Source: Picochlorum sp. SENEW3 (Eukaryota). Taken from it: DNA of 64,000 bases. Of this stretch, positions 2,630 through 49,163 are shown in pieces. The notes under the pieces are model-generated. The model was not told the origin of the DNA and did not search any database. It saw only the letters and a program-made list of their open reading frames with translations. Numbering within the stretch: the stretch's first letter is position 1; each line of letters begins with the position of its first letter. A program made the translations under genes and the position numbers. The stretch covers positions 744,001 through 808,000 of the forward strand of contig CP120453.1 of assembly GCA_034226945.1 (NCBI GenBank), in the 5' to 3' direction.

Positions 2630-4033
2630 ATGGGAGTTGGGCGCAGATACAGGCAACCCGCAAGGTGTGTATCCCTATCTGAATGAAAAGATTGAAACTT
2701 TATGATAACCTATTGTTGCTTCTATGATCCGATAGTCGGTCTTTGTCGAATATCGTCTCTGCAGTGTTGGGGGCCGTTGTAACGATATTGATCTTCTACA
2801 TAGCAAACCTGCCCAGTATTCATGATGAGGCCCATGATTTTCATAATACCAGGTATGTATATATCTCACAGATTCGAGTAGAGTCTCTGTAGCGACGACT
2901 GATGCTTGCTTTCTTGCCCTTGCAGTGATTTTCCAACTGACACAACACCCTCCATTTCTTATCATACTGTGACCAGCACGCGTTCACCAGCTGAACAAGT
3001 AGAAGGAGGAGATATAGATGGTATTCCTGCAGAATTATATAGGCCTCCAGGACCACCAAATCCTAGAGCATCGAGCGAATTTTTAGACAAGATACCCACT
3101 TGTGATTCCCTAGAGTGCCTCAAGGAGGCTCACGAGTTACCACGGGGTGTTGCTAAATTCAACCACCCGCATTTCATTATCATAGGTTTTCAAAAGGCGG
3201 CAACCACATCATTATACTCTTATTTAGCGAGGCACAATGAGACACTTGCCTCTTCCATCAAGGAGCCTGAATTCTTTGTCAATGGATGCAAATCTCACAT
3301 TCCAGAGGGATGTTCGAAGAATGCAACAGTCAAATATATTCATTATACTCTGAGATCCTGGATATATTTAGATTGGAATGGGACAAAGGGTAGCTTTGAG
3401 GGCAGCACGCATATTGTGAGAGCAGGGGAAGAGCTGGCACCTCGATTGCTACACATGATGCCTTGGGTCAAGTTGATCGTATCATTGAGGGAGCCGATTT
3501 CACGGGCAGCATCCATGTTAATCCATAATGAAGATAGAAATAATATGGGATGTCTGGCGAGGTTTAATGACATGGGCAAGTGTCTTTTGAAGAGTTCACA
3601 ATTGAAAGATCCCAAAGATGGTGGACCAGATTCCTATCACGAGGCATTGGAGCCATGGATTTACACGTGGCCATCGACCCAATTATTCGTTGTTCAGTAC
3701 GAAGAGATGACAGATGAAGAGGACGGAGAACAGGAGCTTTTACGAGTAAAGCAGTACCTGGGCCTGGATCCAACATGGCCCAAGAATGGAGGACTTGAAA
3801 TGCGGAATGCCCGTCGGTTTAAGATCAAGCCAGAGGGATGGAGTATTTCTAGGCAGGACTATGAAACATTGGTAGACATTGCAAGGGAGGATATGAGAAA
3901 AACCTTGGATGTATTGGCAATCAAGTCATTGGTACAGCATAGAAAGTCCTGGGAGAGAAGATGGGAGAGCATATGGCAAAGCAACCTGGACTCGTGCGAT
4001 GATTCTGGAATGTGTAATATGGTGTTATCATAG
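2630..4033 (+). CDS. Type II membrane sulfotransferase, copy 2 (exons approx. 2630-2664, 2765-2852, 2926-4033)
   Basis: IIGFQKAATTSL, KEPEFF, LREPISRAASM; hydrophobic anchor in the upstream exon; C-terminal C-x4-C-x-LS ending like the other copies. Confidence 0.85.
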
Positions 4034-4830: not shown

Positions 4831-6492
4831 ATGGTTGTCCCGAATCCTCTAAAGACGGGATTCCAGAGGCCTATGCCGTACGTATATGACATAGATAATA
4901 TAAATATTACATAGTTTGAGCTCAGTGGACTCGTGTGTGCAGTTGGGCAATCATTTTGGGGATTGCGTTCGTTGGCGTTGTGTTGTTAAGCCCTTTGATT
5001 ATGACAATGGATAGAACAGAGATTAAAGAGACAATTATAGAGTCAAAAGGGTATGGTTGTGATGATATAGATGGCCCACCACTTTCAAACCCGTCGCTGT
5101 TGTTGCTATAGAGACGCCTCTTCTCTCTCTGTGTGCATACCTGACACTGTGTGTTTCTGTTCTTGTTGTTCAGGACTGCCCTGTCCTACTTGAATGCTTG
5201 GAGTGGTGGCAGTAAAGATGATGAAGATGGGAATGGGATGGAGATTGGTGATGATACGGTTGATTATGATGACTATGATGATGTGGAGAAGGTCCGTCAG
5301 GCACCCCCTTCTCCTAGGAAGATGGCGGTGGATGCAGAGGCTGTTGCGGAGAAATACTTTATGAAATCTCCTCCTCCTTCTTCTTCTCCTTCATCTTCTT
5401 CACAAGAAGAAGTAAAAAAGGATGAGGGGAAGAAGGTAGAAGTAGCAGATGGAAAAAAAAAGTCGAAAACATTTTTGCAAGCCTTGGCAGTGTGCAAGGA
5501 TATGGTGTGTGTGCGGGAGGCTCATCTGCTTCCTCGTGAGGAAGGTGTCACGTATAATTTCCCTCATTTTCTTATTATAGGATTCCAGAAGGCGGCTACA
5601 ACGTCTCTGCATGTGTACGTATGGCGTATGTTCTCGCGTGTTCTTCTGATGCTGACACCCTATATACATGCATATCTGTCTCTGCAGGCATTTGGGGAAA
5701 CATGATGATGCTCTGAGGCCTGCGAACAAGGAGCCCGAGTTTTTCACGAATGATTGCAAGAATAATCCTCCTGAAGGTTGCAAGAAGGGTACCAGTGAAA
5801 AGTACATTAAAGAAACCTTGCGACTGGATGATTTCATAGAATCCAAGGGTTCAAAGGCCACCTACGAGTCTAGCACACATGTTGTTCGTCGGGCTGAGAA
5901 GATGGCACCGGCACTGTACAAACTTATTCCTTGGACAAAGATTATTATATCACTTCGTGAACCAATCTCTAGAGCCGCTTCAATGCTGATTCATATGAAG
6001 GATGTGTATAATGAAGGGTGTTTGGCAGAGAAGGACCTTGGCTATTGCCTTCATGCCAGGTCCCAGATCCGTGGATTACATGATGGTACTAATACATATT
6101 ATGATGCTTTGAGTGAATGGTTTAAACATTGGCCAGCAGAACAGATTCATATTGTTCAGTATGAGGAGCTCACGAACCCAGACACAGAGGACTCTACAAT
6201 CTGGGATGTGAAGGAGTTTATTGGACTGGATCCCAAATTGCCCAAGGCTGGGTTGACCGTGATTAATGATAGACGATTTAGGATCCAACCTGATGGGTGG
6301 CCTATGGCAAAAAAGCAGTATGAGAAGGTCATCAATCTGGTAAAGCCGGATGTGGAGGCGACATTAGATTTGATGGAACGTCATGGAAAGGTCAAGGATA
6401 GAAAGAAATGGATGGAGCGATGGGAATCTGTGTGGGCCAAAAATTTGGAGACGTGTGATACAAATGACAAGTGTACCATCAATCTTTCATAG
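4831..6492 (+). CDS. Type II membrane sulfotransferase, copy 3 (exons approx. 4831-4877, 4943-5050, 5174-5614, 5688-6492)
   Basis: TM exon WAIILGIAFVGVVLLSPL, acidic/Pro stem, IIGFQKAATTSL, KEPEFF, LREPISRAASM; splice phases are consistent. Confidence 0.85.
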
Positions 6493-6678: not shown

Positions 6679-8290
6679 ATGATGCGTTCGCCGAAAACAA
6701 AGCAGAGTGCAAGGTGCGTTTTGCTGTTTCCAAGACTCCTCAGAATCTCGAGTGAATGAATGGCGTCTTATTGAGGTTGGGATGAATAATTATGTACTAT
6801 GTCATGTAGATGGCTTAAGATGGCTGGATTTGCGGGTGCGGTGTGCGTGGCCCTGGTGCTCGTGTTCAGGTACGGTTGGCGTGGTTGGTGGAATGCTTTT
6901 CTCGTGGTGCTCATGTGTGGCTCTTGTTGTCTTATACAGTAATGTGGGGGAATATTCTGATCAGGAGGCGGCTGGGTATCCCGGTATCGCGATGAGGACT
7001 ATCAAAGGCCTCTCTGACGTTTTAACGTCCTTTACAAGACCAGAGTCATCTCTGCGTAGTGCTTCGGATGTAGCAAAGCCAGAGGATTCCTTCAGCCTGA
7101 AGAACCAGGAATCGATCATCACTGATGCCCAGAAACGAGTGAGATCTGCGGCCAATAGTGATAAAACGATTGAAACTATATCTCGTGCAGCAGATGAGGA
7201 AAGTGAGGAACGGGAAGCTGCTCTTGCAGCGATGATGGGAATCAACCATGGGTCGGAAGATACAAGTGCTGCTCCAATAGATAAGACAGCTGTTCGAGCG
7301 CGGCGATCTTTGGACAGGGTTGAAGCTGTACGAGGCTGTCACACACTGCAATGCTTGAGAGTGGCTCATGAAAAGCCTGCTGGGAAAGCAACCTTCAACT
7401 TTCCGCATTTCATGATTGTCGGATTTCAGAAATCTGCCACCACATCTCTTCATTATCATCTTGTCCGACATCCTAGTATAGCCAGACCTTGGGCGAAAGA
7501 GCCAGAGTTCTTTTCAGAGACATGTGGGTATGATATTGACCAATGTGATCCTGAGGATCTGAAAGACTACATCCAGAGAATTTTGAGGGTCAATAGATAT
7601 GCCGCATCTGATGGTCAGTTAGCTAATTATGAAGCTAGTACTCATTACTCCAGGGCGGGGCACAGATTGGCACCCATGATGGCACGAGAAATGCCTTGGT
7701 TGAAAGTCATCCTGTTGCTTAGAGAACCCATCTCTAGGGCTGCGTCCATGCTTGTGCACATCCTGGACAAAAATATGATGATAAAAAATCTCGGACCAGG
7801 AGGATGTCTGAAACATAGAAACATGGATTTGGGAGAATGCCTGTTGAGAACTTCTCAGATATCGGGACAGAGGAGTTTCCCAACAAACTACTCCACACCA
7901 TTAGAGGCGTGGCTCACGGCATTCCCGAAAGGGCAAGTGTATGTTGGACAATACGAAGCCCTCATTGATGATAAGACGCAGAAAGAAGAATTGAGGAAAA
8001 TCAAGAAATTCATCGGCATTGATCCAAACCTTCCCACTGGAGGTGATGCAGAGTTCATGTCTCGAAATTCTAGAAAAGGAAGCATAAACCCAGATGGGTG
8101 GCCTATGAAAAGGGATGTGTATCAGCACGCAATAGATATCGTTTTGGAGGATAGTAAGAAGGTTGCACGATTGGTTGACAAGTACGGATTCGCAGATGCC
8201 AGGACATGGTTGTCACGGTGGGAGGATGTCTGGCAAGCAAATATGGATTCGTGTGATGCCCAAGGGAATTGCAAAATTCAACTATCATGA
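6679..8290 (+). CDS. Type II membrane sulfotransferase, copy 4 (two short 5' exons, main exon from approx. 6939)
   Basis: IVGFQKSATTSL, KEPEFF, LREPISRAASM; TM exon MAGFAGAVCAVALVLVF-like hydrophobic anchor. Confidence 0.85.
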
Positions 8291-32051: not shown

Positions 32052-32373
32052 TCGGTGATAGTATTTTGCTCCTCTCCAATGAATGAAATTTTATATAAAG
32101 AATTTCTTTAATATAAAGAAATGCATCCTGTCGGTTCTGTGCCGGAACTAGATCAATAAGAAGTGATTTGGCTCCTCCAGCTGCTGCAAGGCAATGAAGC
32201 CACTCTCTCGTAGTATTCTACTGTCCAACCCCACCCTATATTATTAGGATATTCTACCATGCATAGTTTTACGTCATTCCATCGTTCAAGCGCTTCCAGA
32301 TTGCGCCACCAGGCAGGTCCACATTGTATTATACTGTCGGAAATTCGAAAAGTAACGCTATCTGTGTCGAATG

Positions 32374-32466
32374 AGGAAAAGGTCGCGCGTTCGAGCCGCG
32401 TAGCGGGTGGTCAAACAACTTTACACTCAGCCCGCTTAGCTCAGCTGGAAGAGCGTTTCCTTCCTA
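32374..32466 (+). tRNA. trnR-CCU: Circularly permuted tRNA-Arg(CCU): 3' half 32374-32409, 20-nt spacer, 5' half 32430-32466
   Basis: Reassembled 73-nt cloverleaf: acceptor GCCCGCT/AGCGGGT+G73, D arm GCTC-AGCTGGAA-GAGC (G18 G19 A20), anticodon stem TTTCC/GGAAA with loop TT-CCT-A|A, T arm GCGCG-TTCGAGC-CGCGT. Confidence 0.9.
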
Positions 32467-32478
32467 GATCAGAATTCC

Positions 32479-32483
32479 TTTTT
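32479..32483 (+). terminator. Pol III oligo-T terminator of the permuted tRNA-Arg
   Basis: TTTTT 12 nt after the end of the 5' half. Confidence 0.6.
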
Positions 32484-32757
32484 GCTCTCCTCTTAAGAGG
32501 AAAGAAGCTTCTTCTATGTCCAGAAAACATAGAAGAAGGAGTTGCCAAGGCATCACAGATTTCTCGTCCCATCAATGCTATCCGATGATGGGCTGAATGT
32601 GCGTTCCATCCCTGAAGAGGACAGATTGGGTGGTGCCATCATCTGGATAGTTCATGTATCCATAGAACGCTATAGTAGGATACATTAATCTTTTACTTCA
32701 AGAAACGTAACCAATTCGGATAGCAATACCAAGAGAGGAGTATTCGGCGCACCGTTC

Positions 32758-33158
32758 ATGGTAAACACCACGCTATTCTGTCCCACGTGCGCGAATCTCT
32801 TACAGGGTACGTCGGTTTACAGATTTGGGTGATTACTATTGCAGATGAACTAATACAACGAACGTTTGTTGCAGTTGAAAAGGTACAAGGGCTGCATTAT
32901 CAAAAGTGTTCGTCCTGTCCCTACGTGTTTGAAATCAGCAGCACCATTTCAAAGCAGGTGGCGTTGGAAAGAAAAGAGGTTGACGACGTATTAGGCGGTG
33001 AAGACGCGTGGAAGAACGTCCAGAAGGCATCTGCTGTGTGCGAATCCTGTGGAAACAAGGAAGCTTACTTTAGGGAAATTCAGACAAGGTCTGCAGATGA
33101 GCCAGCAACACTGTTTTTCCGGTGTACAAAGTGCGCCAAAGTTTGGAAAGAGAACTAG
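32758..33158 (+). CDS. RPC11: RNA polymerase III subunit C11 (exons 32758-32806, 32875-33158)
   Basis: LFCPTCANLL, CSSCPY, EVDDVLGGEDAWKNV, TFIIS-like zinc ribbon QTRSADEPATLFFRC..C. Confidence 0.95.
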
Positions 33159-33165
33159 TATACTA

Positions 33166-34200
33166 ATGATGCGTTCGGCTCTGTCATTGCAAAAGGGCTG
33201 TGGTGTTTTCCGTGTCCGAACGAGCAACAAAAAGCAGCATGTGTGCCGCTCGTCTCAGACAGAAACAGCCGGAGATGTCGCTCAGTTGAGGGAGGAGGTG
33301 GCTGCTCGGACGGCAGCCATGGCTAATTTGGAGAAGCAGCTTCTCCATGTAGAAAATCTGAGGGCAGAGGAGTTGAGGACTGCCATATCGAGGTTTGAGG
33401 AACTCGAGGAGGCCCTGCTGATGGCTGAAAAGAGTATTTTGAAGGAAGAAGAATCAGTAGCTCTGCTGACGAAGCAACTGGAGGCGAAAGATAAGGAGAT
33501 TTCTGAAGGATTGAAAAAGCTCGAGGTTGCGATGAAGCAAATGCATGCATTCAAAAAGGAAGCAGAGGATGCTAAAGCTCGGGAAGAGGAGGTCCGTGAT
33601 GCTGCCAAGGCAGAACTGGAGGCTTCTCAGAATCTTGTGGCGAAAGCGTATGCCCTCCTGACGGAATGGAAGGAGGATCAAAAGGTAATTGTGACAACGG
33701 ACAAGGATAACAGCAACAGCAATGGGAGTGTCCTCAAGGAGGATGAGCTGGAGACTGTTCTTGCAGAGCTAGATTTGCTGAGGGGAGAGCTTGAAGCAGA
33801 GTTAGAGACAAATGAGGATGCCATTGCACGAGCCGAGGCAGCCGAGGCTGAACTGGAAGAGATCCGAAAGGGAGCGCTCAAGCCTTCCAAAGCTCTTGAT
33901 CCTGCAGAGATGGAACAAATTGCAAAGAAGCTGGCAGCATCCCAACAGGAGTTGACTGCATCCAAAACAGAGGAGGCTCGCTTGAGAATTCTTGTTGAAA
34001 AGCTGGAAGCTGAAAAGGCAGAGATGGAGCAGCAGAAATTAAGCTTAGAAAGCGTAAATAACAAGGTTTCCATGTCCAAGTATACAAAAGAACTCGAGGA
34101 ACGCAATAGAGAGCTTGTTGGGGATCTCTCAAAGAGCAAAACAGCCTTGGAGCAAGCCAAGAATCTCCTTGTCTCATCCTCTTCGTCCATCTTATCCTAA
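33166..34200 (+). CDS. Coiled-coil protein with plastid transit-like N-terminus
   Basis: ATG 7 nt after the RPC11 stop; MMRSALSLQKGCGVFRVR..VCRSS transit-like segment, then a long heptad-rich region. Confidence 0.7.
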   Translation: MMRSALSLQKGCGVFRVRTSNKKQHVCRSSQTETAGDVAQLREEVAARTAAMANLEKQLLHVENLRAEELRTAISRFEELEEALLMAEKSILKEEESVALLTKQLEAKDKEISEGLKKLEVAMKQMHAFKKEAEDAKAREEEVRDAAKAELEASQNLVAKAYALLTEWKEDQKVIVTTDKDNSNSNGSVLKEDELETVLAELDLLRGELEAELETNEDAIARAEAAEAELEEIRKGALKPSKALDPAEMEQIAKKLAASQQELTASKTEEARLRILVEKLEAEKAEMEQQKLSLESVNNKVSMSKYTKELEERNRELVGDLSKSKTALEQAKNLLVSSSSSILS

Positions 34201-34299
34201 TCTTGTAAATTCACGTATAAAAGAGTTGACACAGTGTTCGACAGGTCTCATGGTAGATTGGCGTCCTCAATGGCAAAAGCAAAAGTAAGCGTTGAAATA

Positions 34300-34396
34300 T
34301 TCTAATCAAGCCCCATGGACCGGACTCGGGCACGACCGCATTGCATGTGCATCGCGGTCGACAGGATTCGAACCTGCGCAGCTTGCGCTACTTGAT
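34300..34396 (-). tRNA. trnS-AGA: Circularly permuted tRNA-Ser(AGA): 3' half 34396-34353, 13-nt spacer, 5' half 34339-34300
   Basis: Reassembled 84-nt class II cloverleaf: acceptor GCGGTCG/CGACCGC+G73, D arm CCC...GGG, anticodon stem CTTGA/TCAAG with loop TT-AGA-A|A, variable arm AGC-GCAA-GCT, T arm GCAGG-TTCGAAT-CCTGT; T4 runs follow at approx. 34284-34275. Confidence 0.92.
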
Positions 34397-34664
34397 CATT
34401 AGATATATGCATTTGGCAAAATATTCACGAATAATAAAATATCGAGTTCCAGGGGCGGACCCATATTCGCCGATATACAGCGTCCGTGATACAATAATAA
34501 CCCACTAGGAATATGCGCCAACGTATAGATATGCTGTCCAAGCATAACGCACACCATACACCAGTATATACATGGTCCCAACACGAATGCGTTCCTTACT
34601 GTCTCCTGTCTGGAGCTTTCTACACAAAGAATTTTGTTCTCAAAAGGATATCTTTACAAATAAT

Positions 34665-36227: not shown

Positions 36228-38093
36228 ATGCGGGTTATATCCCAGCATAACGGACATGGCGTGGCCACGAGGAAACACGTGGTCAGCAGAACAACTCTTG
36301 GGCGACGTCGTGTTCTTTCAGTTTCAGCAGCTGTGGCGAGTCCTACTACTTCTGGTAAATCCATGAATGCCATAACGACAAAGGAGCAGGAGCAATTGCA
36401 GATGGAGATGGGTTTTTGTCGAATTAATCAACCATATTCTCCAGACTTGCTTCAGCAGCAGGTTTTTTCGGATGCTTCTTCGATTCTTTCGACAGTATCC
36501 AGGTCAATATACATGTTTTCAAATATACTTGGATTTGCATTCAATTTATACATGGATAGAGGGAATGATACGCCGAGTCTGGTCAAGCGCCGTGCGACGG
36601 AACTGAGGGATATGTTGACAAAGCTTGGTCCGACCTTTATTAAAGCCGGTCAGGTCCTAGCCAATCGGCCAGATATTCTGAGGGAGGATTATATGAATGA
36701 GCTGATTGTGTTGCAAGACGATGTTCCGCCTTTTTCTGATGAAGAGGCGTTTAAGATTTTAGAATTGCAGCTTGGGAGACCATTGGGGGAGGTGTTTTCA
36801 TCAATCTCAGAGCAGCCTGTGGCTGCTGCGTCTCTGGGGCAGGTGTACAAAGGGGTGCTTCGCGATACAGGAGAAGCTGTTGCTGTCAAGATACAGAGGC
36901 CTGGAGTGGAGCCTATTATTTATAGAGATTTGTTTATTTTCAGGGCAATTGCCAAGATGCTCAATCCGTTTGCTTTGGCTCGGTTGGGATGCAATGCAGA
37001 GTTGATTGTGGATGAGTTTGGAGAAAAGCTGTTGGAGGAATTAGATTATGTTCAAGAGGCGAGAAATCTGGAGGATTTTAGGAGTAATTTCATGAATGAT
37101 GATTATGTGAAGATTCCGTGGGTGCGACGGGATTTGAGTGGTCCAAAAGTGTTGGTGATGGAATGGATTGATGGGATTCGTTGTACTGATGTGGCACAGC
37201 TCAAGTCGTCCGGGATTAATTTAGATGAGTTTATTAGAGTGGGTGTGGTGTCTGGCCTTCGACAGTTGTTGGAGTTTGGACTGTTTCATGGAGATCCCCA
37301 CCCAGGAAATATTTTTGCCATGAGGGATGGGAGGATTGCGTATGTGGATTTTGGAAACGTGGCAGAACTGTCACAAACGAATAAAGAAGTACTCATAGAT
37401 GCAGTTGTACATGCTGTGAATAAGGATTATCAGGCCATGGCCCAGGATTTCATCAAGTTGGGATTCTTGGCTCCGGGGACGGATGTGAGACCCATTGTGC
37501 CAGCCTTGGAGAAGATTTGGGCGGATTCTATGGGTCGCTCGCTTGCAGATTTTAACTTTAGAACGGTCACGAGCAAGTTTAATGAAGCTGTGTATGAATA
37601 TCCTATTCGGATTCCTGAAAGGTTTTCGCTCGTGATTCGATCCTTGTTGACTCAGGAAGGAATTTGTTTGACGCTCAAGGCAGATTTTCACTTTTTAGAA
37701 GTTGCATATCCCTACGTTGCTCGAAGGCTGTTGACCGATGAAGACCCGGCGTTGCGGCAGCGATTGTTCCAGGTGCTTTTCCAAGATGGTAAATTTAGAT
37801 GGGATCGATTGGAGAATCTCCTCACCCTGGCAAACCAGTCGAGCGGCTCTGTTGATTTATCATCCACCGTTGCAGATGGTGCTAGACTGGTTCTTCTGGA
37901 TGAAGAGCTCAGGCAGCAGCTGCTCATAGCGTTCACCGAAGACGATCGCCTGCATTTTGAGGAGTTGCAGCGGATACTCAATTTGTTGCCCTCCAACAGA
38001 GGAAGTGACATCCTGAGGTCCAGTGCAAGAAACTTTCCAAAGATTGCCCGTGATTTGGCCATTCAATGGTCTGATAGAATCCTAGAAAATTAA
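36228..38093 (+). CDS. ABC1K1: Plastid ABC1 atypical kinase, ABC1K1-like
   Basis: LGPTFIKAGQVLANRPDI, AAASLGQVY, VAVKIQRPG, FHGDPHPGN, DFG. Confidence 0.88.
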   Translation: MRVISQHNGHGVATRKHVVSRTTLGRRRVLSVSAAVASPTTSGKSMNAITTKEQEQLQMEMGFCRINQPYSPDLLQQQVFSDASSILSTVSRSIYMFSNILGFAFNLYMDRGNDTPSLVKRRATELRDMLTKLGPTFIKAGQVLANRPDILREDYMNELIVLQDDVPPFSDEEAFKILELQLGRPLGEVFSSISEQPVAAASLGQVYKGVLRDTGEAVAVKIQRPGVEPIIYRDLFIFRAIAKMLNPFALARLGCNAELIVDEFGEKLLEELDYVQEARNLEDFRSNFMNDDYVKIPWVRRDLSGPKVLVMEWIDGIRCTDVAQLKSSGINLDEFIRVGVVSGLRQLLEFGLFHGDPHPGNIFAMRDGRIAYVDFGNVAELSQTNKEVLIDAVVHAVNKDYQAMAQDFIKLGFLAPGTDVRPIVPALEKIWADSMGRSLADFNFRTVTSKFNEAVYEYPIRIPERFSLVIRSLLTQEGICLTLKADFHFLEVAYPYVARRLLTDEDPALRQRLFQVLFQDGKFRWDRLENLLTLANQSSGSVDLSSTVADGARLVLLDEELRQQLLIAFTEDDRLHFEELQRILNLLPSNRGSDILRSSARNFPKIARDLAIQWSDRILEN

Positions 38094-38094
38094 C

Positions 38095-38601
38095 TTACAC
38101 TTTCCTCATTAACAAGTAAATATTATTATCAACATCCAAATCTTCTAATCTCTTGGGATCTCCCGAGAGCTGCATCAATAACCCACCAAAAGACACAAAA
38201 ACATCTGCCTTGACATGACCACTCGCCAAGGCATCCTTGTACTTGAACACCTTGCCGAACATCACGTAGTCGTACTTGTCCGCCAGACTCTCTCGCGTGC
38301 CTATACTTGTGTCATAAATCTGCTGCCCAGGATCTCCTGTAGGCATGGGACTCCCATCCTTATTCAACGTTGGGGACAGACATACAGTCACCTTTTCTCC
38401 ACTCTTGACAGGGTACACATCCACATTGATGTCCAATATCAGGTCCATCTCGTACAAATCGCTCCTCGCTTTTATTCTACTAACTTTATCAAACTTCTTT
38501 CCATCAGGATCTACCTCTAGAATCTCAAATGTATCCTCTAGAAAGGTAGAACCGCTTCCAGTGTTGATACCCGTCGTTGCATGGTGTTCTGCAGAGGCCA
38601 T
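38095..38601 (-). CDS. RPB8: RNA polymerase I/II/III common subunit RPB8
   Basis: DPDGKKFDKVSRI, LADKYDYVMFGKVFK, VSFGGLLM. Confidence 0.95.
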   Translation of the reverse strand: MASAEHHATTGINTGSGSTFLEDTFEILEVDPDGKKFDKVSRIKARSDLYEMDLILDINVDVYPVKSGEKVTVCLSPTLNKDGSPMPTGDPGQQIYDTSIGTRESLADKYDYVMFGKVFKYKDALASGHVKADVFVSFGGLLMQLSGDPKRLEDLDVDNNIYLLMRKV

Positions 38602-38764
38602 TTTTCTCTTACTTTCCAATCGTATTACGAATTAATGGTTCAATATAAATATGAAAATTATTTTCATAGCTCTTTTGGTGTTTTGTGAGACGTACATTGC
38701 ATAAAACGGTGTTACATTGTTACCTTATTAAGGAATTTTCCTGCCACCATCGCATCTTGGTCTT

Positions 38765-47519: not shown

Positions 47520-48854
47520 TTACTGTTTTTCCTTTTTTCCTCCACTCATCTTGGCCAACGCAGCGCCAATGGCATCATGATACTCATCTGGAAGAATATC
47601 AAAAAGCTGGGACGATGTCTTCGTAGCATCGTTGGCGTGTGCTACCCTCTTGCCAGGCCGCTGCTCTTCATCAAGGAGCTGCATACTGCTGCTATCAAAG
47701 CTAAATGGATACACATGGTGCTTGGAACTCTCCTTCGCCTCTGCATGCTGAACGACTATATTCGAGTGTATTTTGCTCATACAATCCTTTATTGTATCAC
47801 ATATTTTACTCAGAGAGAATTCAACATGCCAGCCACAAGACTCTGTGCATTCTCGTGATGGGGCATTCAGGCTCTTGGTCAGACGATCTTGTACCTCCTC
47901 ATGCTCTACATCTATCACATGAATATGCACCGGGAACTTTTCTATAGGATGCTTCAGCGTCGATATAGACCTGTAGTCCTGTTCTAATACGTCATCGTCT
48001 TCGTCATGATCATCTTCATCCTCCCCAGAACTCTGGTGTTGCTGTTTATCAGTCAGAGTGATGACATGATACACGGATGACTGTCTCTCATGTCGAGGAT
48101 CGTACCCTTTCCGAACCCATGAATACCTCCATGGTCCAGACGAAAACCGATAACATAATGCTGCCAGCTGTTCATTCACATCTTCATCTGTAAACACCTG
48201 GCCTTGAGATTCCTCCAACAGCACGGGCGCTAAAGCAGAGTTCATATACACGGGTTTTTTTTTGAAAATCTTTCTCAAAACATGCCCCGCAGCAGACAAC
48301 CTTGGATCAGAATCATCCACGTCATCGTGAAAATACCCAGCAACATCCTTTGGAGCAGAAGGAGCGCCATACTCGAGGAGCACTACACCACTCCTCATCG
48401 TGGAATACATCCGAGACCGCACCGCATCTCGACCAGACCCATACGCATCCACAGCATACTCTACGCTATCCTCCACCTGAAACACTGGCGGAATGCACTG
48501 CAAGGTGCCTTTCGTCTCCTCCACCTGCATATCTGCAGGAGACTCAAACGCATAACACTGCGTCACAGGTATCGTATGAGCCGTCTCTTCCTCTATGTTC
48601 AACCTCAGCAACATCATGTTTGGCTTCCGGACATCATTACTCACGACAGCATGACAAAACTCGTCTTCAGGACGAAGTTTGACACTGATATTCCGAGAGT
48701 GACTTTTACGCTGTTTCTGCAACCCTTCTAGGCCTCCAAAAGTCTCCAAAGCCTTTTCTGGATTAGATAAATCTTCCAGATAGCCAGGAAACTCGACTGC
48801 AAAATACGACGTGTCAGCTGTTGCCTCTGGAACAGTGACTGGAGTGTCCTTCAT
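47520..48854 (-). CDS. GTF3C5: TFIIIC subunit 5 (tau95/TFC1-like)
   Basis: FAVEFPGY, ALETFGG, LRPEDEFCH and YRFSSGPWR...VRKGYDPR motifs of tau95. Confidence 0.85.
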   Translation of the reverse strand: MKDTPVTVPEATADTSYFAVEFPGYLEDLSNPEKALETFGGLEGLQKQRKSHSRNISVKLRPEDEFCHAVVSNDVRKPNMMLLRLNIEEETAHTIPVTQCYAFESPADMQVEETKGTLQCIPPVFQVEDSVEYAVDAYGSGRDAVRSRMYSTMRSGVVLLEYGAPSAPKDVAGYFHDDVDDSDPRLSAAGHVLRKIFKKKPVYMNSALAPVLLEESQGQVFTDEDVNEQLAALCYRFSSGPWRYSWVRKGYDPRHERQSSVYHVITLTDKQQHQSSGEDEDDHDEDDDVLEQDYRSISTLKHPIEKFPVHIHVIDVEHEEVQDRLTKSLNAPSRECTESCGWHVEFSLSKICDTIKDCMSKIHSNIVVQHAEAKESSKHHVYPFSFDSSSMQLLDEEQRPGKRVAHANDATKTSSQLFDILPDEYHDAIGAALAKMSGGKKEKQ

Positions 48855-49163
48855 TTTTTCAAACCATTGATCGAACCAATGGATGCTCTAATTATTCCTG
48901 TCGTTTCGTATATATTGAATACCAATCTGCCAGGTAACAGCCAGGCATCGGGTTTGTACACAGTCGTTCCTGTGTCAAAAAATTTGAATGGCATATTGTC
49001 CACATGAGAAAGACCGGTCAATTGATTGATTGACCGATCAGTCTGGAAAATAGACGCAGAGACATGAGTCCGTCTTGTTTTTTGTCACAAAACGGCAGAT
49101 TTTTATTTTGTTTCTTGATAATTTTTCATCATCTTTGTTTCTAGAGACGTGATACGATAAAAC

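Follow-up and report, generated by a model that had tools for sequence, protein, structure and literature searches.

The window analysed here, 64,000 nucleotides (nt) of contig CP120453.1 from the alga Picochlorum sp. SENEW3 (assembly GCA_034226945.1, positions 744,001 to 808,000 of the forward strand), carries two transfer RNA (tRNA) genes whose halves stand in reversed order, a tRNA-Arg(CCT) gene on the forward strand and a tRNA-Ser(AGA) gene on the reverse strand. Between them lie RPC11, which encodes an RNA polymerase III (Pol III) subunit, and a second open reading frame (ORF). Each tRNA gene consists of a leader, the 3' half, a short intervening sequence (spacer), the 5' half and a trailer (Table 1). 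Very probably, both loci are functional nuclear circularly permuted tRNA genes of the green-algal type II, in which the leader supplies one strand of a bulge-helix-bulge (BHB) splice motif and the adjacency to RPC11 reflects ordinary gene order.

Standard searches of the intact window return neither gene. ARAGORN calls no tRNA there, whether introns are allowed or not, no Rfam family matches at its gathering score, and even permissive Rfam E-values give no match to any tRNA fragment in the window. We scanned both strands for a T arm and acceptor 3' strand followed, within 300 nt, by a complementary 5' strand with T8, which yielded 186 candidates and 166,656 joins of plausible length that were scored by ARAGORN. 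Whole-length tRNAs came from two of the 186 candidates, the Arg and Ser loci, with 393 and 197 accepted joins, respectively. Among 30 dinucleotide-preserving shuffles used as a control, 29 gave no tRNA and one gave a single locus with 14 accepted joins. When the halves are joined by script at 37/38, ARAGORN reports a full-length tRNA-Arg(cct) of 73 nt and a full-length tRNA-Ser(aga) of 84 nt, both extending over the entire joined sequence, which bears out the two permuted tRNAs split at 37/38 that an earlier, sequence-only reading of this DNA had proposed. Both rejoined tRNAs have U8, A14, G18G19, U33, a TTCGA T loop and a 7-nt anticodon loop, and the Arg 3' half begins with the anticodon-stem 3' strand, continues with a variable region of 5 nt, the T arm and the acceptor 3' strand, and closes with the discriminator G.

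Table 1. Positions of the two permuted tRNA genes, their flanking signals and the neighbouring protein genes in the window (position 1 is the first base of the window; negative positions in the remarks are counted from the first base of the 3' half and positive ones from the last base of the 5' half).
Feature	Position	Strand	Remarks
AT-rich, TATA-like run TATTATA	32327..32333	+	-47 to -41 from first base of Arg 3' half; candidate upstream Pol III promoter element
Arg leader	32352..32373	+	last 13 bases (32361-32373) are the BHB leader strand; terminal TCGAATG
tRNA-Arg(CCT) 3' half	32374..32409	+	A38 to discriminator G73; T arm, B box; CCA not encoded
Arg intervening sequence, 20 nt	32410..32429	+	closes acceptor stem; proposed RNase P and tRNase Z substrate
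tRNA-Arg(CCT) 5' half	32430..32466	+	G1 to A37; A box, D arm, anticodon CCT
Arg trailer	32467..32483	+	BHB strand +1 to +7; T5 Pol III terminator 32479-32483
RPC11 (Pol III subunit C11/RPC10) exon 1	32758..32806	+	from reading of the sequence
RPC11 exon 2 with stop codon	32875..33158	+	Pfam Zn_ribbon_TFIIS, E 6.5e-19; coding end 33155
ORF, 367 codons, Glu/Lys/Leu-rich	33097..34200	+	between RPC11 and tRNA-Ser; no Pfam family
AT-rich run, 13 bases	34430..34442	-	-46 to -34 from Ser 3' half; candidate upstream promoter element
Ser leader strand of BHB motif	34397..34404	-	terminal TCTAATG
tRNA-Ser(AGA) 3' half	34353..34396	-	A38 to G73; long variable arm; B box matching GGTTCGAATCC; no CCA encoded
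Ser intervening sequence, 13 nt	34340..34352	-	between the two Ser halves
tRNA-Ser(AGA) 5' half	34300..34339	-	G1 to A37
Ser trailer	34275..34299	-	BHB strand +1 to +3; T4 runs 34281-34284 and 34275-34278
ABC1-kinase ORF	36228-38090
RPB8, subunit common to Pol I, II and III	38098..38631	-	Pfam RNA_pol_Rpb8, E 4.3e-49
TFIIIC tau95	47523..48887	-	Pfam Tau95, E 3e-16; Tau95_N, E 2.2e-12

The arrangement is that of type II permuted genes, with the 3' half upstream of the 5' half on one strand and a short spacer between them. It is also that of a single transcription unit, with an AT-rich run upstream, a T-run downstream, no internal terminator and no encoded CCA. At the level of sequence, both genes thus show every feature by which the type II class is defined. 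Inspection of the flanks of both loci found no partner halves. A search of the window for permuted genes with a late junction, in the T stem or T loop, gave 48 body candidates, 227 pairs and 69,916 joins, with no match, and neither the Ser nor the Arg T-arm plus acceptor string had an exact match in viral_contigs. As a side observation, the permuted tRNA-Arg (32377-32458, + strand) matched YrlA, a bacterial Y-like RNA, at chance level in the permissive Rfam search (24.6 bits, E 0.67). The match seemingly arises from a like order of T arm, closing stem and D arm, and permuted tRNAs may surface in this way.

The sequence-only reading had remarked that both leaders terminate in AATG before A38. 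This can be read directly from the sequence, and the shared stretch is in fact longer, T-7 C-6 N-5 A-4 A-3 T-2 G-1 (TCNAATG) before A38, while both trailers begin N A T after A37. In tRNA-Ser, these bases can be drawn as a BHB motif with a central helix of four Watson-Crick pairs (U32:A-3, U33:A-4, A34:U-5 and G35:C-6), a 3' bulge of U-2, G-1 and A38 with a predicted cut before A38, a 5' bulge of A36, A37 and U+1 with a predicted cut after A37, and an outer helix of A+2:U-7 and U+3:A-8. The tRNA-Arg central helix has the same geometry with C34:G-5, giving three pairs and a C35/C-6 mismatch, and its outer helix has six pairs (A+2:U-7, U+3:G-8, C+4:G-10, A+5:U-11, G+6:C-12 and A+7:U-13) with U-9 bulged; folding with the cloverleaf imposed also recovers this outer helix. 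The single difference between the Arg and Ser leaders, at -5, lies opposite anticodon base 34, and both genes have the complementary base there. Most of the shared letters therefore follow from pairing: the two A residues because U32 and U33 must pair, T-7 because of A+2, and N-5 because of anticodon base 34.

Green-algal and nucleomorph permuted pre-tRNAs have their junctions at 37/38, where they form a BHB-type motif (Soma 2014, PMC3978253), and this motif is the recognition target of the tRNA splicing endonuclease (PMC3978253). Read against that model, the shared leader is almost wholly explained as one strand of the BHB splice motif. A common processing signature, as the sequence-only reading had supposed, is indeed shared by the two genes; however, it is no new signal and, being the BHB motif, adds nothing new by itself.

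The transcription signals are arranged alike in the two genes. AT-rich runs of 7 bases at -47 (Arg) and 13 bases at -46 (Ser) precede the 3' halves, and an 11-base run stands at -51 in the homologous Arg gene of a related metagenome contig, L001, described below. Downstream T-runs follow at +13 (T5, Arg) and at +16 and +22 (T4, Ser), and no run of at least four T occurs inside either unit or the L001 unit. The B box stands upstream of the A box in both genes, as had been pointed out and as the permuted order demands. In the model proposed for algal permuted tRNA genes, an upstream element recruits TFIIIB without TFIIIC (PMC3978253). The suggestion that the Picochlorum genes rely on upstream AT-rich elements holds as far as anatomy goes, since such elements are present and match the published model, but that they operate in this way is an inference. 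The window also encodes tau95 (TFC1/GTF3C5), with Pfam matches to its triple-barrel N-terminal and helix-turn-helix domains scoring 47.8 and 60.9 bits against cut-offs of 23.1 and 23.7, and RPB8; the presence of both had been noted before and is upheld by Pfam.

On this anatomy, the AT-rich element near -46 would direct Pol III to start about 15-25 bases before the 3' half, and the polymerase would produce one RNA comprising leader, 3' half, spacer, 5' half and trailer, stopping at the T-run. The acceptor stem would close round the spacer and the body would fold as a tRNA, while the BHB motif would arise atop the anticodon stem from pairing of the leader and trailer with the anticodon loop and between themselves. 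The tRNA splicing endonuclease would then cut after A37 and before A38, and a ligase would join the ends of the tRNA body into a circle, from which RNase P and tRNase Z would excise the spacer before CCA is added.

Several observations weigh against this interpretation or limit it. ARAGORN tolerates many alternative joins (the 393 and 197 given above), so the junction is not uniquely computed; the 37/38 assignment accordingly rests on standard tRNA numbering, under which the loop has 7 nt, U33 is in place and the anticodon occupies 34-36, on the BHB geometry, and on the identity of A37. An A at position 37 is typical of tRNAs for A-starting and U-starting codons (the t6A and i6A sites), and this expectation favours the 37/38 join over a 36/37 join, which would place G at 37. 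The Ser outer helix has only two pairs and the Arg central helix contains one mismatch. Pairing does not account for the bulge letters TG or for the C at -6, and there are just two independent leaders, in which this agreement is a coincidence of 1 in 64 at most by simple arithmetic. Unconstrained folding of the precursor gives no cloverleaf, so that fold was not used; when the cloverleaf is enforced, the energy model favours a longer anticodon stem (32:38 and 33:-1) over the central BHB helix. As the alga keeps tau95, the promoter usage proposed above is tentative. Finally, contigs of the RNA run X17 cover RPC11 and the following ORF and neither tRNA locus. This is no evidence either way. Assembled RNA contigs are in any case incapable of revealing RNA ends or circles; run X8 is probably DNA.

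Relatives provide a further indication of function. With RPC11 exon 2 as the query, a protein-guided search of metagenome contigs yielded 326 pattern matches and, from these, 13 loci (L001-L013). In L001, where RPC11 is 97% identical in protein sequence and the region about 80% identical in DNA, the same permuted tRNA-Arg gene stands upstream of RPC11. Its 3' half (36/36), its 5' half (37/37) and the last 22 leader bases (22/22) are identical to those of the window. Its 32-nt spacer is unrelated to the 20-nt spacer of the window (16/32 columns identical), and identity is also lower in the upstream region from -100 to -23 (54/85 columns), the trailer (21/26 columns) and the stretch from the trailer end to the RPC11 ATG (192/303 columns). 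Conservation of all 73 exon bases and the leader, with replacement of the spacer, is the pattern of functional exons and points to purifying selection. In the more distant L002 (RPC11 73% identical in protein sequence), a tRNA-Arg(CCT) 5' half lies at L002:44-80, with a terminal CCTA followed by GAT as in the window, a T9 run at +31, and the RPC11 ATG about 450 nt beyond this region; the matching 3' half would lie outside the contig, past its start.

Near relatives add a finer scale, in contigs of four public runs covering 32250-34500, with counts made among the 40 substitution rows listed, which makes them supportive rather than complete. None of the 40 falls inside the four tRNA halves. Among the listed changes, the Arg gene has two substitutions in its spacer (32416 and 32426) and one in its trailer at +8. 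The Ser gene has one in its spacer (34347), along with a loss of 5 nt whose placement can be confined to the spacer, two in its trailer (+9 and +10), and four in its leader region (-10, -16, -22 and -37); positions -1 to -9 of the Ser leader have no listed change. The idea of a lineage-wide permuted-tRNA system is thereby sustained in part: the Arg gene recurs in L001 and L002 and such genes are known from the green-algal literature, but among the relatives the support is limited to the Arg gene. The L001 contig terminates inside the ORF that follows RPC11, and Ser sequence is absent from the 85 nt after the stop of this second ORF in L002, where the contig ends.

The gene beside tRNA-Arg is confirmed as RPC11. 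The best PDB matches of its product are the human and yeast Pol III subunits RPC10 (E 2e-22 to 3e-21), followed by RPA12 (E 1.6e-7) and RPB9 (E 4.9e-4 or weaker), so by these comparisons the protein, with its C-terminal TFIIS-type zinc ribbon, is nearer to RPC10 than to RPA12 or RPB9. The RPC11 intron (32807-32874) has GT..AG ends and is confirmed by an RNA contig of a related strain that joins the exons. The 367-codon ORF, omitted by the sequence-only reading, probably has its true start at a later ATG, and homologous ORFs follow RPC11 in L001 and L002. A metatranscriptome RNA contig (33122-33296) runs unbroken across the end of RPC11 and the start region of this ORF; the two transcripts may overlap or run on, although a two-gene contig is not proof of a single transcript. 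The two tRNA genes had been described as facing each other about 1.8 kb apart around RPC11. They do converge, with 1.83 kb from 32466 to 34300, but two genes lie between them rather than RPC11 alone. RPB8 and tau95 lie 3.7 kb and 13 kb, respectively, beyond tRNA-Ser.

Whether the neighbourhood of tRNA-Arg and RPC11 carries meaning is a separate question. A functional coupling, in which Pol III occupancy of the tRNA gene tunes Pol II transcription or dosage of RPC11 and so feeds back on subunit supply, is in our view unlikely. The permuted tRNA-Arg gene and the RPC11 ATG are on one strand and separated by 291 nt, with the tRNA upstream, a layout kept in L001 and L002, and there is a mammalian precedent, in that a Pol III-transcribed MIR within Polr3e alters Polr3e expression by transcriptional interference (PMC5358760). 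However, synteny, which the sequence-only reading had offered as a check, does not set this pair apart. The order of tRNA-Arg, RPC11 and second ORF is preserved in both relatives, but so is collinearity in general: the gene after RPC11 is collinear in L001 and L002, and in L001 collinearity extends to the DNA upstream of the tRNA. Given this wider collinearity, we read the adjacency as ordinary synteny, without a special bond, and placement beside a Pol III subunit gene is probably due to chance, as the sequence-only reading had itself allowed. Furthermore, two tRNA genes less than 2 kb apart are unremarkable, since roughly 0.4 such pairs would be expected for an assumed set of about 50 tRNA genes in about 13 Mb.

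The same scan also brought up an RPC11-tRNA association outside algae. Nine of the loci (L003-L011) are macronuclear nanochromosomes of spirotrich ciliates, with C4A4 telomere repeats at the start of 6/9 and at both ends of 3/9, in-frame TAA and TAG, and TGA as stop. On the RPC11 strand, 129-283 nt past the stop codon, all nine carry a standard tRNA-Gly(GCC) with a T-run downstream, which ARAGORN found and which scores 47-65 bits in Rfam. Identity among the ciliate RPC11 proteins falls as low as 48%, and the third gene of the nanochromosome differs, being a WD40-cyclophilin in five, a DnaJ protein in one, an ORF without Pfam family in two, and missing in one; this last, L010, is a complete molecule of 1,075 bp with only RPC11 (L010:258-578) and the tRNA (L010:788-858). 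A broader proposal would be that RPC11 is recurrently tied to a tRNA gene, Arg in the Picochlorum clade and Gly in ciliates, which might serve as a sensor linking RPC11 expression or copy number to Pol III activity, much as the mammalian MIR does for Polr3e. We think this just as improbable as the local coupling. RPC11 has the tRNA on its upstream side in the alga but on its downstream side in the ciliates, the isoacceptors differ, two RPC11 loci have no tRNA (L012, with 6 kb on each side, and L013, with 1.1 kb only), Oxytricha tRNA genes often share nanochromosomes with protein genes (PMC3558436), and the idea is post hoc, conceived after the data. The persistence of the partnership across ciliate divergence is nevertheless a coincidence worth recording. 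The L013 match itself is a partial RPC11-like sequence of 46% identity, in a contig whose bases L013:1-32 are CCCTAAA-type repeats resembling plant or green-algal telomeres.

Two further explanations concern the tRNA genes themselves, and both appear very improbable. One is that the loci are dead relics, left by rearrangement or tandem duplication of tRNA genes, from which no tRNA is made; the silence of the standard finders would agree with it. However, the Arg halves have stayed identical across about 20% DNA divergence while their spacer was replaced, none of the changes listed in near relatives touches any half, the cloverleaf, conserved bases, BHB motif, AT run and terminator are all intact, and the flanks hold no vestige of the missing partner halves. 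Equally remote is production of the halves as separate RNAs joined in trans, like archaeal split tRNAs: the L002 contig, which starts 43 nt before the 5' half, has no 3' half within those 43 bases, so that its spacer is long or its halves lie apart, but the halves are only 20 and 13 nt apart in the window and 32 nt apart in L001, on one strand, and the spacers contain neither a run of at least four T nor an AT-rich run, the only AT run and terminator standing outside the pair.

In their sequence, the two loci fit closely with what has been described in other algae. Permuted tRNA genes of the prasinophytes Ostreococcus, Micromonas and Bathycoccus and of the Bigelowiella natans nucleomorph share with them the 37/38 junction, the BHB-type motif and the AT-rich upstream region (PMC3978253), and the spacers of 13, 20 and 32 nt seen here compare with 5-64 bp listed for green-algal and nucleomorph genes (PMC3978253, Table 1). 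The class differs, as Picochlorum belongs to the Trebouxiophyceae. In M. pusilla and B. natans, too, tRNA-Ser(AGA) has a permuted gene with the 37/38 junction (PMC3978253, Table 1, after Maruyama et al. 2010), whereas Arg(CCT) is not among the 21 green-algal and nucleomorph genes tabulated there, O. tauri having Arg(TCT) instead (PMC3978253). The junction signature, AT run and T-run anatomy are thus already published for algal permuted tRNAs.

The red alga Cyanidioschyzon merolae offers both a likeness and a contrast. Its permuted genes also have an upstream TATA-like sequence, a downstream T-stretch and a BHB motif at the junction, and a circular intermediate was shown experimentally in C. 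merolae (PMC3978253). However, the C. merolae genes use four junction positions, with some introns and an Arg(CCT) gene of type IV (59/60) (PMC3978253). C. merolae is also reported to lack identifiable homologs of TFC1 (tau95) and TFC3 (PMC3978253). Since tau95 is encoded in the window, Picochlorum has not lost TFIIIC in that way, and it is a useful contrast to C. merolae on the question of how Pol III initiates when the A and B boxes are reversed. The mouse and human Polr3e MIR resembles the tRNA-Arg locus as a Pol III unit associated with a Pol III subunit gene, but the MIR is antisense and intronic with experimentally shown interference (PMC5358760), whereas tRNA-Arg is upstream of and co-directional with RPC11.

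Permuted tRNA genes have been listed for few organisms. A 2014 table contains 34, from C. merolae, Ostreococcus, Micromonas, the B. natans nucleomorph and Thermofilum pendens (PMC3978253); Bathycoccus has seven, and a prasinovirus carries permuted tRNA as well (PMC3673656). Within the same class as Picochlorum but in another genus, a permuted tRNA-Pro(UGG) was shown in Auxenochlorella (Plant Cell 2025, PMC12636532), where the permuted tRNAs were found after tRNAscan-SE had given an incomplete set (PMC12636532). In the literature searched, which covered subscription papers incompletely, we found no report of permuted tRNAs in Picochlorum. Our analysis therefore adds Picochlorum to this short list as a second trebouxiophyte lineage and Arg-CCT at 37/38 as a new isoacceptor for green algae. 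Additionally, it shows standard annotation missing permuted genes in this window, with 0 tRNAs called in 64 kb that hold two. Picochlorum is a fast-growing production alga whose tRNA set would look incomplete without a permuted-gene search, which matters for both annotation and engineering.

The window as a whole has a G+C content of 44-48% and encodes eukaryotic proteins with occasional short introns. The product of its ABC1-kinase ORF (36228-38090) shares 99% identity with a protein attributed by one source to a Picochlorum strain, followed among named relatives by Chlorella and other trebouxiophytes. A hairpin at 5367-5445 was considered as a microRNA and dropped, as two plant microRNA families scored far below threshold on both strands; it is an inverted repeat of pyrimidine-rich and purine-rich arms (z -2.6), probably low-complexity sequence. 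Near the start of the window, four ORFs on the + strand (732-1562, 2903-4030, 5656-6489 and 6683-8287), each with a Pfam Sulfotransfer_1 match, form a tandem series of sulfotransferase paralogs.

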